DNA of 64,000 nt from a virus, in the IMG/VR virus record IMGVR_UViG_3300045988_079349; one strand, 5' to 3'. A model generated the notes under the pieces. The model was not told the origin of the DNA and did no database searches. It worked only from the letters and a program-made list of their open reading frames with translations. Below, piece by piece: positions 6,777-33,208 of this stretch; positions within the stretch are counted from its first letter, which is position 1; every line of letters begins with the position of its first letter. The position numbers were made by a program, and so were the translations under genes.

Positions 6777-6809
6777 AAAGATAAGAGTAGCAAAGCTACT
6801 CTTATCTTT
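6777..6809 (-). terminator. rho-independent terminator downstream of topoisomerase A gene
   Basis: 15-bp inverted repeat aagataagagtagc/gctactcttatctt followed by T-run on minus strand. Confidence 0.5.
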
Positions 6810-30772: not shown

Positions 30773-33208
30773 TTACTCCTTTTTGAGAGTATCAATTACA
30801 CTTTCAAGAGTAGTTCCGCGCAATAGCTCAGAAACCGCACGGCTAACCGGCTGCCCGCCAGCAACGGCGTATGGCGCAATAGATTCTGCGATCTTTTCTA
30901 CTACCGCTTGATTGCTTCTGGTAGTTAAAGCCGCTGCGAGATCGGGACCGAGAGCCTCAAGAATTGTTTTCATAGAATCTGCGGCCGCGGCCTCTCTAGC
31001 AGATTCAATCTCAAACATTTTTCTCCGATGCTCCAACTCGGCTTCGCGCTCTTTCTGGAGTCTCAGCTGCTCTGCTTCAAAGATAGCATCTTTCAAAGAT
31101 TGAATCTCTTTCTCAATCTCATATTTGCGCTTATCCTCTTCGTCCTTGTCTCGCTGAGCCGCAACGGTTAATTCAAACTCTGTAGCTCTTGTTTCTGCTT
31201 CAAGCATTGCTTTACTTTGAGCATAGTCTTCTGCGAGCTGGACTTTCTCCTTATTCAAGGCGATAATTTCTTTCTCTGTCTCCGCGGAGTTTTTTGCAGC
31301 TGCGAGGGCCAGAGAACGAGAAACAATCTCCCCTTGATGCTTATCAATTAGGGCTTGAATACTACCTTCAATTTCAATAGACAAAACTTCAACATCAGTA
31401 ATTCTCATGCCATTTTCTGCAAATTCATGGAGATATTCAGGAACTCCACTATCAGTTATTGCATTAAGGACAATGTCATGATAGCCTTCATGTAACTCAT
31501 TAATGGTAAAATCTTTTGCTTCTCTCTTGATTGCAGAGCGACACCAGTCACATAGATGCTTGATATAATTATCAACGGAGAACCAAACATCTTTCATTTC
31601 TTTGTTGAAGTCAACATGATAAGAGACTTTAATCTGAGCATGAACAAAATCACTGGTTTCAACATTGATAATATCACTTACTCGATTATTCTCACAACGA
31701 AGGAATACAACTTTTTCAAGCCTATCTGTTGTCTTGGGCTTTCCAGTAGACAATTCGAGAGCTTCTAAGGTTTGGTCGTAATCCAATAAGATAGTTTGAG
31801 GGCCAACAACAACCTCTCGGGTTCCGTCCTTAGAGATTACATTAACCGCATAACCAGTCCAAACATCAACAGCGACTGCACCCTCATATTTACTAGAATC
31901 AAGAGAGATAGTTCTAGGAGGAGTAAAGGTATTAGTTCTGTTGATTTTATTGGTTTCTGTCTTGGTTGGAGTTCCAACATACTTCGTAGTTGTAGAAATA
32001 GACATAGTAGGATCGGCGAATGTGCCAACTACATTAGACAGATTATTGAGCGAAGCGGTAACTCCGTCAAACCCATTAGTTTCAACTAAACTAATAGGAT
32101 GACCATTTGCTTCAAGGACTTCTACATTTCCAGGATACCAAAGTTCACACTGAGAACGACTTAAAGTTCTTTTAATTGCAACTTCGATTCTAGGATCGGG
32201 CAAATACATTGCGGGGCCTCTAACAGTTTTAATTTCGCCCGTCATGCGATTCATAATATACCGGCCTTCGCCCTTTGGGATAGCAACAGCATGATGCATT
32301 ACTTTACCATTATAAGTAATAAAGGTATGTTCAGGACGAGGATAATAAATCATCTGGTCTTTGCCAGTGATAAAGAGTTCCTCTCCAGCTTTATGCTCCT
32401 TGCCGTTGTCATCCTTATAGTCGGCAACAACCTTGACATAAACGCCGGAAATATCAGAAAGCTCGATAGCATTACGTTTAATATGGCCATTACCATCTTT
32501 AATAAAGCTCTCTGTGGGTTCAGGGAAAACTACCGTGGGACCATGCACATATCGCTTGTTGCCATCCTCATCTTTCAAGATACAATACTCCAAACGCTCA
32601 AGAGTCACGGCATCCCGCACATATCCCTTGCTTGGGTCATTGTTAATTGCCTTTACCTCAATTCCGGTAGGAGGAATATAGAAGGAGATTTCAGTACCCT
32701 TAATAATTAAAACTTGGCCGTTTACAAAGTAAGGCTCATTCTCGCTGGCGTCTCTATCTTCTTTTGTTGTATTCAAACTATCCGCATCATAGACTTTAGC
32801 GACAAGATATTGATTGCTGCGGAGATTATGCCCCTGAATGACTTGAGCCATTTGCCCTGGATAAAGAGCAAAACTAGCAGGACCGGGAATGTTAATTTTC
32901 TTACCAATCTCCATATTCTCTGGAATAGAATTACTGGTGCCGGCCTGCGGATGTTTATTACCAGGGGCGGGATTCTTCAGGGCGATATACCAACCTTCAG
33001 GCGCAGTTACAAACAGAGAAATAGCATCATTATACCTATCACAAGGAATAAATTTCTTTGTCTTTGTATCAAATTTTACAAGGTTATCGCTCTGAGATAG
33101 GCTCATCTTATGCGGGCCTACGTTACAGGCGACGTTACCTTTTGTTTCATCAAGTACATAAGCGTACTCATTTGGGGATAAAACTAGATCTTTTTGGATT
33201 TCTGGCAT
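30773..33208 (-). CDS. Major Vault Protein (MVP) homologue; no TAG codons
   Basis: 811 aa. N-terminus LVLSPNEYAYVLDETKGNVACNVGPHKMSLSQSDNLV parallels MVP repeat 1 [38 protein letters not shown]. Further repeat-domain matches (ALYPGQ, GTEISFYIPP, LERLEYCILKD), an SPFH-like shoulder and a C-terminal cap-helix coiled coil. Confidence 0.7.
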   Translation of the reverse strand: MPEIQKDLVLSPNEYAYVLDETKGNVACNVGPHKMSLSQSDNLVKFDTKTKKFIPCDRYNDAISLFVTAPEGWYIALKNPAPGNKHPQAGTSNSIPENMEIGKKINIPGPASFALYPGQMAQVIQGHNLRSNQYLVAKVYDADSLNTTKEDRDASENEPYFVNGQVLIIKGTEISFYIPPTGIEVKAINNDPSKGYVRDAVTLERLEYCILKDEDGNKRYVHGPTVVFPEPTESFIKDGNGHIKRNAIELSDISGVYVKVVADYKDDNGKEHKAGEELFITGKDQMIYYPRPEHTFITYNGKVMHHAVAIPKGEGRYIMNRMTGEIKTVRGPAMYLPDPRIEVAIKRTLSRSQCELWYPGNVEVLEANGHPISLVETNGFDGVTASLNNLSNVVGTFADPTMSISTTTKYVGTPTKTETNKINRTNTFTPPRTISLDSSKYEGAVAVDVWTGYAVNVISKDGTREVVVGPQTILLDYDQTLEALELSTGKPKTTDRLEKVVFLRCENNRVSDIINVETSDFVHAQIKVSYHVDFNKEMKDVWFSVDNYIKHLCDWCRSAIKREAKDFTINELHEGYHDIVLNAITDSGVPEYLHEFAENGMRITDVEVLSIEIEGSIQALIDKHQGEIVSRSLALAAAKNSAETEKEIIALNKEKVQLAEDYAQSKAMLEAETRATEFELTVAAQRDKDEEDKRKYEIEKEIQSLKDAIFEAEQLRLQKEREAELEHRRKMFEIESAREAAAADSMKTILEALGPDLAAALTTRSNQAVVEKIAESIAPYAVAGGQPVSRAVSELLRGTTLESVIDTLKKE

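Follow-up and report, generated by a model that had tools for sequence, protein, structure and literature searches.

Why does a phage that reads TAG as glutamine (Gln) keep this codon out of some of its genes and accumulate it in others? The question is raised by a stretch of 64,000 nucleotides from the IMG/VR virus record IMGVR_UViG_3300045988_079349 (hereafter the window; all coordinates count from its first letter), which is part of an uncultured gut phage of ~133 kb with genetic code 15 (TAG = Gln), carries nearly all of its genes on the minus strand and has a G+C content of 33-44%. A preliminary description of the window proposed that genes with TAG can be translated only after a suppressor tRNA has accumulated, which would gate lysis, structural and selfish-element genes. 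Our results confirmed that the split between TAG-free and TAG-rich genes is real, and we consider it rather probable that TAG has been purged from genes expressed early or in bulk, and allowed or favoured in lysis genes, selfish genes and those whose products are toxic or made in few copies, all of which would thereby depend on the suppressor.

Genes were taken as a greedy minus-strand set of stop-to-stop open reading frames (ORFs) bounded by TAA or TGA only, and were analyzed with Pfam, PHROGs, Rfam, ARAGORN, BLASTP and megablast. The relatives used for counting comprised 63 IMG/VR loci with a GyrA 50-99% identical to that of the window, on contigs of up to ~148 kb, and 80 loci anchored on the TROVE-like gene; 278 loci were fetched in all. 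One IMG/VR contig of 132,915 bp matches the window at 99-100% identity.

Uneven distribution of TAG in the window

The 77 minus-strand genes comprise 16,968 codons with 83 in-frame TAG, which are strongly clumped among genes (Poisson dispersion: chi2=363, df=76, p=5e-39), so that 53 genes have none where 33 would be expected. Among them are 26 genes of 150 amino acids (aa) or more, with 9,044 codons in total, for which the probability of zero TAG at the mean rate of the window is 6e-20. With the synonymous Leu codons TTG:CTG as internal control for C or T at the first position, and the Gln T:C first-position ratio set equal to theirs, ~105 TAG would be expected in these genes and none is seen. 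The earlier argument that such an absence cannot be due to chance was therefore borne out, and the genes named as examples, gyrA (787 aa), gyrB (629), MVP (811), TROVE (507), NAMPT (529), RNA ligase (424) and PhoH (418), each have zero TAG and keep their names under Pfam, where the TROVE-like protein matches DUF2828/DUF7788 and the PhoH protein is a PIN-PhoH.

The companion statement, that the TAG-rich genes carry many TAG, goes too far for ThyX, with three, Sak4, with two, and uracil-DNA glycosylase (UDG), with one; the tail fibres have one to three each. The density of up to one TAG per 29 codons given for homing endonucleases is reached in the DUF2726-type nuclease at 56278-57225, with 11 in 315 aa. 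The split had been assigned to the interval 6808-33208, where it is indeed present: 26 of 31 genes (8,229 codons) are TAG-free, and all 24 TAG fall in five genes, 12010-13344 (10), 11667-12008 (1), 15001-15462 (1), 24132-25004 (6) and 27004-27255 (6). Most of the TAG-rich examples named lie outside this interval. Counts of TAG per gene, read with table 15 in the window and its relatives as the preliminary description had advised, showed an association of TAG with gene class.

TAG as a Gln-like sense codon

TAG in this phage is a Gln-like sense codon that is decoded and does not terminate. Pfam domains run across two to ten TAG each in ThyX, the lysozyme/amidase of the endolysin, GIY-YIG proteins and AAA_24 (Sak4), and PHROG homology likewise continues across TAG in RecJ, RuvC, a reverse transcriptase and tail proteins. 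In orthologues, the residues aligned to TAG of the window are Gln (372), TAG (174), Lys (131) and Glu (127); codon 57 of Sak4 (TAG) is Q in 42 of 44 orthologues and codon 86 of ThyX in five of five. Gene ends are TAA in 62 cases and TGA in 15, and none of the 77 genes needs TAG as its terminator. It might be supposed that TAG is still a stop and that the TAG-rich ORFs are pseudogenes or miscalled, and two small TAG-bearing ORFs, 61233-61562 and 42174-42434, do look spurious (TAG is counted in 22 of 75 genes, ~29%). Such an artefact is scarcely credible, given full-length Pfam and PHROG matches across many TAG positions, Gln at those positions in orthologues, a cognate tRNA and the lack of any gene that requires a TAG terminator.

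The suppressor tRNA has the anticodon CUA, hereafter tRNA(CUA) (Table 1), with an encoded CCA, a U1-U72 mismatch and G73, of which G73 and the unpaired 1-72 position resemble tRNA-Gln. Its similarity to other tRNAs of the window is a near-tie (Leu-CAA 70%, Gln-UUG 69%) that does not settle the isotype. It is 97-100% conserved in close relatives. Two Rfam searches around it found no ribozyme, Y RNA or other non-tRNA family, and the window showed no gene for a release factor or an aminoacyl-tRNA synthetase.

Some smaller observations concern the same elements. The tRNA with anticodon CAA ('Leu') at 35433-35509 (-), which is 70% identical to the suppressor and shares a small cluster with it at a distance of ~0.6 kb, is 77 nt long and lacks the long variable arm expected of a bacterial tRNA-Leu. 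The gene 47877-48365 (-) ends in TAG-TAA and is the only one with TAG as its last sense codon, which may be a former TAG stop backed by TAA; its homologue in phage phAss-1, 69% identical, has no TAG. In diverse phages (loci L064-L142, contigs of up to ~200 kb), 42 tRNA(CUA) genes lie within 10 kb of a TROVE-like gene, and many of them, like the suppressor of the window, begin with T and end in TGCCA.

Conservation of the split in relatives

The same genes are TAG-free, or nearly so, throughout the relatives. GyrA orthologues have 2 TAG in 48,123 codons and keep 578 CAG, each one transition away from TAG; GyrB and DNA ligase orthologues have none in 34,852 and 17,348 codons, respectively, TROVE homologues none in 36,462, MVP homologues 1 in 22,841 and RNA ligase homologues 5 in 13,253. 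The TAG-free TROVE is not trivial, since the 42 neighbouring tRNA(CUA) genes indicate a recoded phage as the source of at least 35 of the 80 TROVE-anchored loci. By comparison, TAG amounts to 416 in 15,420 codons of GIY-YIG homologues (27/1000), 119 in 10,844 of endolysin orthologues (11/1000), 44 in 3,776 of holin-like orthologues, 6-12 per 1000 in tail-fibre orthologues and 12 per 1000 in homologues of the nuclease 24132-25004. In the endolysin, the TAG at codons 15 and 64 are kept in 19 of 23 orthologues.

Taken across the family, these counts argue that the TAG-free state is held by selection, and that chance and recent acquisition are excluded as its source. An origin of MVP, TROVE, NAMPT, RNA ligase and gyrase as recent gains from standard-code organisms could be suggested by ten TAG-free genes that are GC-richer and prefer CAG, and so could look foreign. 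We rejected recent horizontal transfer, which is very improbable, on the grounds of conservation and of a codon signature shared with the capsid protein: the TAG-free state persists down to 50% aa identity, as in GyrA with its CAG codons, whereas the endolysin exchanges TAG and CAA/CAG even at 80% identity; the GC-rich signature is common to the phage's own capsid protein; and GyrA and PhoH, native in composition, are equally TAG-free. How strongly selection acts against a recoded codon in defined genes can be measured cleanly across the whole family.

Promoters and terminators

A 21-nt promoter-like motif, GATATAATATTTATAGAAAGT, has 18 hits on the minus strand, against ~1 in shuffled sequences and 2 on the plus strand, with exact copies including 54862-54882 and 45479-45499. 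It consists of an extended -10 element followed by a conserved block, and TTGAAA or TTGACA is often found 17 nt upstream; from this host-type consensus we infer an 'early' promoter class. The gene after the motif is TAG-free in 16 of 17 cases, the exception appearing to be a spurious ORF, and of 200 distinct promoter-proximal ORFs in relatives, 186 lack TAG, compared with a TAG-free background of 68% (odds ratio 6.2, p=2e-16, a value inflated by shared ancestry). The motif is found family-wide: with 3 mismatches or fewer allowed, it has 343 same-strand matches in the 278 fetched loci.

The promoter at 36639-36680, which belongs to this class, has the full 12/12 sigma-70 consensus, unmatched by any other site in the first 60 kb of the window, and is followed in order by a TAG-free ORF (36301-36630), tRNA(CUA) and another ORF (35797-36114); in close relatives the motif likewise lies ~445-451 nt upstream of tRNA(CUA). 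Since it lies behind the best host-type promoter, the suppressor tRNA probably does not act as a late switch but is transcribed from the onset of infection. The lysis cassette, for its part, lies between two strong terminators without room for a promoter, and no shared late-promoter motif was evident upstream of TAG-bearing genes in the few upstream regions compared.

Replication genes, late module and capsid

Genes beyond the window were taken from the near-identical contig (L150, L198, L278) and from a metagenome contig (L355). On the same strand, a primase-like ORF and an NrdD-like ORF (L198), both named by eye, have no TAG, and a PolIII-alpha-like ORF (L150) has one in 1,300 aa, with DNA_pol3_alpha annotated at the matching position in related loci; a RecJ-like exonuclease and a RuvC-like resolvase, recognized by PHROG matches, carry nine and seven. 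The orientation then flips into a late module with holin and tail proteins, in which L198 and L278 show TAG in all late-strand ORFs of 100 aa or more (Table 1), often more TAG than CAA and CAG together, and TAG makes up more than half of the Gln codons in several tail genes. Past the right end of the window, the relatives have many small TAG-free ORFs.

The head genes were reached on a metagenome contig (L355) that is linked to the late module by 49 nt of exact identity. No TAG occurs in its capsid protein homologue (350 aa, 52% identical to the YonB-family protein of phAss-1), in a tube-like virion protein of 464 aa or in a scaffold-like ORF of 229 aa (so named from its position only); their immediate neighbours carry two to six, and one ORF of 478 aa carries 25. 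Pfam gave no match for the capsid and tube-like candidates of the family, which were identified by PHROGs and by BLASTP against the YonB-type protein of phAss-1. The same holds in phAss-1 itself, whose genome is fully sequenced, with 0 TAG in the capsid, tube-like and scaffold-like genes, 3 in TerL, 1 in the portal gene and 25-110 in giant tail ORFs.

These observations bear on a purely temporal switch, in which TAG-free genes would be early, and TAG genes late and translatable once the suppressor accumulates. Such a switch fits the early-type promoters in front of TAG-free genes, the TAG-rich tail and lysis modules and the model published for other recoded phages. It does not fit the TAG-free capsid, tube-like and scaffold-like genes in the late module here and in phAss-1, the TAG in RecJ, RuvC, ThyX, Sak4 and UDG, the suppressor tRNA behind the strongest host-type promoter, or the PolIII-alpha-like, NrdD-like and primase-like ORFs, which are TAG-free or nearly so, yet without the early motif. 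A purely temporal switch is thus unlikely. The gating by the suppressor that had been proposed for lysis, structural and selfish genes stands as far as the sense TAG, tRNA(CUA), the promoter layout and the TAG-rich tail module go; as a timing gate it has only partial support, since it conflicts with the TAG-free capsid and tube-like proteins, the DNA-metabolism genes that bear TAG and the early type of the suppressor promoter.

The late module also contains a reverse transcriptase of the diversity-generating retroelement (DGR) type (phrog_1423, YMDD motif, 6 TAG; L278 5019-6236 (-)), which adjoins a 545-aa candidate target (7254-8891 (-)). Mtd_N domains occur in the tail-fibre genes of the window (37652-41891).

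A possible role for TAG

If TAG is purged from early and bulk genes, the following sequence of steps may account for it. TAG would be read only by the phage tRNA(CUA), in competition with the host release factor 1, and each TAG would therefore tie full-length translation to the suppressor and cut the yield. Purifying selection would strip TAG from genes whose translation relies on the unmodified host machinery or has to yield much product, a set that may include promoter-proximal early genes, gyrase, ligase and replication genes, the NAD-salvage, RNA-repair, vault and TROVE genes, and the late capsid, tube-like and scaffold-like genes. In low-copy or hazardous products TAG would be allowed or favoured, up to half or more of the Gln codons; candidates are tail and tail-fibre proteins, the endolysin-holin pair, nucleases and recombination enzymes, the DGR-type reverse transcriptase and free-standing homing endonucleases. 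Transcription may add a second layer, with TAG-free units and the suppressor tRNA transcribed from the conserved sigma-70-type promoter, and lysis and tail-fibre cassettes placed without it behind terminators.

A more tentative extension is that TAG density acts as a dose dial and a second lock and not as a clock, with the suppressor made from the first minute. As a dial, it would leave the proteins of a late operon that are presumably needed in hundreds of copies TAG-free, and give their low-copy neighbours 2-25 TAG each. As a lock, it would make hazardous or selfish cassettes, which bear TAG, lack promoters and lie behind terminators in early operons, depend on both read-through and suppression. 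If this were true, homing endonucleases would be confined to the gene pool of recoded phages.

Codon composition and the case for drift

An index of G-ending codons (Lys, Glu) is negatively correlated with TAG density (rho=-0.47, p=3e-5, 73 genes), and TAG-free genes exceed the others in G+C content at third codon positions (GC3; p=5e-5). A high-index, CAG-preferring signature is common to the capsid protein, TROVE, SPFH, RNA ligase and others, and gyrase, PhoH, PolIII and NrdD are TAG-free yet ordinary and AT-rich in codon usage, which suggests that the TAG-free genes probably fall into at least two groups, one of abundant products and one of replication or early products. MVP and the TROVE-like gene (30773-35111) and SPFH (15644-16540), all on the minus strand, have the capsid-like CAG- and G-ending signature, which suggests high expression of these assembly-forming proteins.

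A serious rival, possible though in our view doubtful, is a balance of mutation and selection with no regulation at all, in which TAG is a slightly costly Gln codon that is purged under strong selection on translation efficiency and accumulates by AT-biased C-to-T drift in genes under weak selection, homing endonucleases for instance. The correlations of TAG density with the codon-bias index and GC3, and the TAG-free capsid and tube-like proteins, would be expected on it. The ratio of TAG to CAG in the TAG-rich class (60:8) is also indistinguishable from that of the Leu control TTG to CTG (25:7; Fisher p=0.23, not significant). In addition, the 83-aa gene 27004-27255 (-), which lies inside a TAG-free operon and has 6 TAG among its 12 Gln codons, has 0 TAG in three distinct orthologues 62-81% identical to it, so that its TAG content flips fast. 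On the other side, essential and strongly selected genes such as the endolysin, the holin-like gene and tail or baseplate genes are among the TAG-richest, single TAG positions are conserved in the endolysin, TAG exceeds half of the Gln codons in several tail genes, and unrelated recoded phages, too, show an enrichment of recoded stops in their lysis genes. TAG also lie further towards the 5' end than CAA/CAG of the same genes (0.46 vs 0.51); this skew, like an effect of the base that follows TAG, is small, sensitive to the choice of start codon and suggestive only.

The last two comparisons in favour of drift, namely the Leu control and the fast flips, weigh against selected purging and gating, for TAG richness could be near-neutral drift. 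So do several other points: gene starts were picked mechanically; the relatives share ancestry, so that the pooled counts are not independent samples and the p-values obtained across loci come out too small; a suppressor with an early-type promoter speaks against a sharp late switch; the promoter class is a reading of the sequence; and competition with release factor 1, timing, dose effects, gating and host are deductions. One apparent sign of selected TAG gain was rejected. TAG-rich genes have 53 Gln per 1000 codons, compared with 27, and this excess is a family property, because endolysin orthologues with fewer TAG are equally rich in Gln (~61/1000).

Comparison with known recoded phages

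Related work on recoded phages includes Yutin et al. 2021 and Ivanova et al. 2014. The closest model is that of Borges et al. (bioRxiv 10.1101/2021.08.26.457843), in which the recoded stop is absent from replication genes and abundant in structural and lysis genes, and its proposed role is to block premature translation; these authors also report a homing endonuclease, strongly recoded and lying inside an early gene, whose expression would be 'prevented until late', and make no mention of capsid genes or expression level. Their code 15 gut phages share with the present one the reading of TAG as Gln, an own suppressor tRNA and the same split, and the 29% of genes with TAG in the window falls within their clade means of 26-71%. 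The model, including its corollary on homing endonucleases, has therefore already been published, and what we report is its rediscovery in a new family, with some refinements.

Differences were also observed. Instead of two blocks, the split here forms a gene-by-gene mosaic, with single TAG-rich cassettes behind terminators among TAG-free, promoter-driven units; and a tail tube family of crAss-like phages is preferentially recoded, whereas the capsid and tube-like genes are TAG-free here. Block-wise mixed coding is described by Pfennig et al. (Mgcod), and metaproteomic evidence for code 15 in crAss-like phages is reported by Peters et al. The published model may be refined in three respects: avoidance of TAG is not simply an early trait and also marks what are probably the most abundant late proteins, the suppressor tRNA is apparently under an early, host-type promoter, and TAG-rich cassettes are insulated by terminators. 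These refinements are predictions that can be tested with a cultured phage or a rebuilt pair of tRNA and reporter.

Phage phAss-1 (OQ749652, listed by NCBI under 'Caudoviricetes code 15 clade'; Babkin et al. 2023, PMC10607447) is predicted to have a host in the Eubacteriales, and only TerL and the tape measure protein are listed there as recoded among four signature proteins. It resembles the present phage in genome size (~136 kb, compared with ~133 kb), a large tRNA array, tRNA(CUA) genes, and NAMPT, PRPP-synthetase, nicotinamidase, NrdD, ThyX and gyrase genes, and has homologues, 27-75% identical, of 25 of the 77 window proteins. GyrA, GyrB, ligase, PhoH, NadE and NAMPT are TAG-free in both, ThyX carries TAG in both, and its YonB-type capsid protein, 52% identical to that of the family, is TAG-free in both. 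It differs in the gene order of the virion module and in having three suppressor tRNAs, compared with one in the window, and no MVP or TROVE-like homologue was found in it. Described members of Phassvirus share 83-86% identity, and genus-level identity with them was not found, as megablast of 6808-31800 gave no match to OQ749652. The same interval had no close DNA match in a GenBank-derived phage collection, where the best GyrA protein match is 37% identical. The present phage belongs to an uncultured family with an SP-beta-type YonB capsid and is probably a distant relative of phAss-1; the shared signature proteins and gene content may place both in one wider monophyletic group.

In T4-like phages with tRNA arrays, late genes are tuned through codons and tRNAs, and phage tRNAs fit the AT-rich codon usage of a subset of genes. 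T4 is not known to have a codon that is unreadable without a phage tRNA, in contrast to TAG here, which terminates unless suppressed. Borges et al. (bioRxiv 10.1101/2021.08.26.457843) argued that TAG is an extreme of such tuning.

The probable host is a member of the Clostridia, perhaps of the Oscillospiraceae. Oscillospiraceae and other Clostridia use the standard code. Endolysin homologues are present in their genomes, and two contigs of ~148 kb that appear to be family members were binned with metagenome-assembled genomes of Oscillospiraceae/Clostridia. No member of the family appears to have been deposited as an annotated phage genome, and the family, with more than 60 related contigs of up to ~148 kb, adds a well-populated group to the known mixed-code phages. 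Annotation with the standard code would shatter the tail, lysis and endonuclease genes of such a genome.

Gene map of the window and minor observations

Table 1. Features of the window, with the TAG they contain, and late ORFs of the near-identical contig
Feature	Coordinates	Strand	TAG	Remarks
RNaseH-GyrB-GyrA operon	6808..11540	-	none	Pfam; promoter motif 11594-11574, terminator 6811-6775
Lysis cassette	11627..13474	-		terminators 13474-13447 and 11665-11627; no promoter motif
Endolysin	12010-13344 (as counted)	-	10	lysozyme, amidase and SLH domains; probable GTG start near 13419, end 12010
Holin-like protein	11667-12008	-	1	two hydrophobic stretches
Auxiliary block	13473..24049	-		Pfam: PIN-PhoH, SPFH, phosphoesterases, AAA_33 kinase, Thg1, NadE, NAMPT, PRPP-synthetase-like, isochorismatase
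Repeat-containing nuclease-like protein	24132..25004	-	6	paralogue of 56278-57225; end of transcription unit, just before next promoter motif
RNA-repair/vault block	25091..35111	-	none but for 27004-27255	Pfam: RNA ligase, RlaP, phosphoesterase, MVP, TROVE-like
Suppressor tRNA, anticodon CUA	36133..36207	-		ARAGORN; Rfam tRNA 61.6 bits
Best sigma-70-type promoter	36639..36680	-		TTGACA-17-TGnTATAAT, 12/12, with conserved downstream block
Tail-fibre cluster	37652..42130	-	1-3 per gene	Mtd_N domains; terminators 42323-42295 and 37648-37619; no promoter motif
GIY-YIG homing endonuclease	3891..4802	-	11 in 303 codons	directly behind terminator 4839-4812
tRNA array	42407..55153	-		26 of 30 window tRNAs and tmRNA; several promoter-motif copies; interspersed TAG-bearing endonucleases
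GIY-YIG endonuclease in tRNA array	49089-50000	-	7
GIY-YIG endonuclease in tRNA array	51538-52143	-	2
LAGLIDADG-type endonuclease in tRNA array	46804-47202	-	2
DUF2726-type nuclease	56278..57225	-	11 in 315 codons	end of a unit, just upstream of promoter motif 56172
Sak4/AAA_24, two ORFs, ThyX	560..3610	-	Sak4 2, ORFs none, ThyX 3
Uracil-DNA glycosylase	58936..59649	-	1
GATATAATATTTATAGAAAGT copy	17792..17812	-
GATATAATATTTATAGAAAGT, other 17 starts	62383, 61655, 56172, 54882, 54627, 53864, 50647, 45499, 37375, 36659, 33513, 30712, 27735, 24087, 11594, 2966, 507	-
Late ORFs beyond the window (length/TAG)			2841 aa/97; 1311 aa/25; 929 aa/27; 636 aa/16; 196 aa/11

The lysis cassette varies between near-identical genomes, for a contig 99% identical to the window (L001 4842-5756) has an extra gene of ~850 bp at the PhoH-endolysin junction (window 13414-13475); this gene has two TAG and, by eye, is cell-wall-binding-like with C-terminal SPOR-like repeats.

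Within the auxiliary block, the only TAG-bearing gene is 15001-15462. The block includes an NAD cluster, 19482-24049 (-), with NadE, NAMPT, a PRPP-synthetase-like protein and a nicotinamidase-type isochorismatase, which is wholly TAG-free and is also found in phAss-1. We take this cluster to resemble phage NAD+ reconstitution pathways that counter NAD-depleting defence systems. The neighbouring nuclease-like gene, 24132-25004, is likely to be a free-standing homing endonuclease.

ARAGORN predicted 30 tRNAs in the window, and Rfam added a transfer-messenger RNA (tmRNA). The tmRNA, 47289-47619 (-), matches the full model of RF00023 with 71.6 bits (gathering threshold 47) and was missed by ARAGORN; its tag ORF, read by eye, is ATKLNDNDYFSSNIAA followed by TGA, and so does not end in TAG. 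Default ARAGORN also missed a 117-nt Rfam tRNA match (49.8 bits) at 44388-44504 (-), which the program reads, with introns allowed, as a tRNA-Lys(CTT) with a 42-nt insertion in the anticodon loop.

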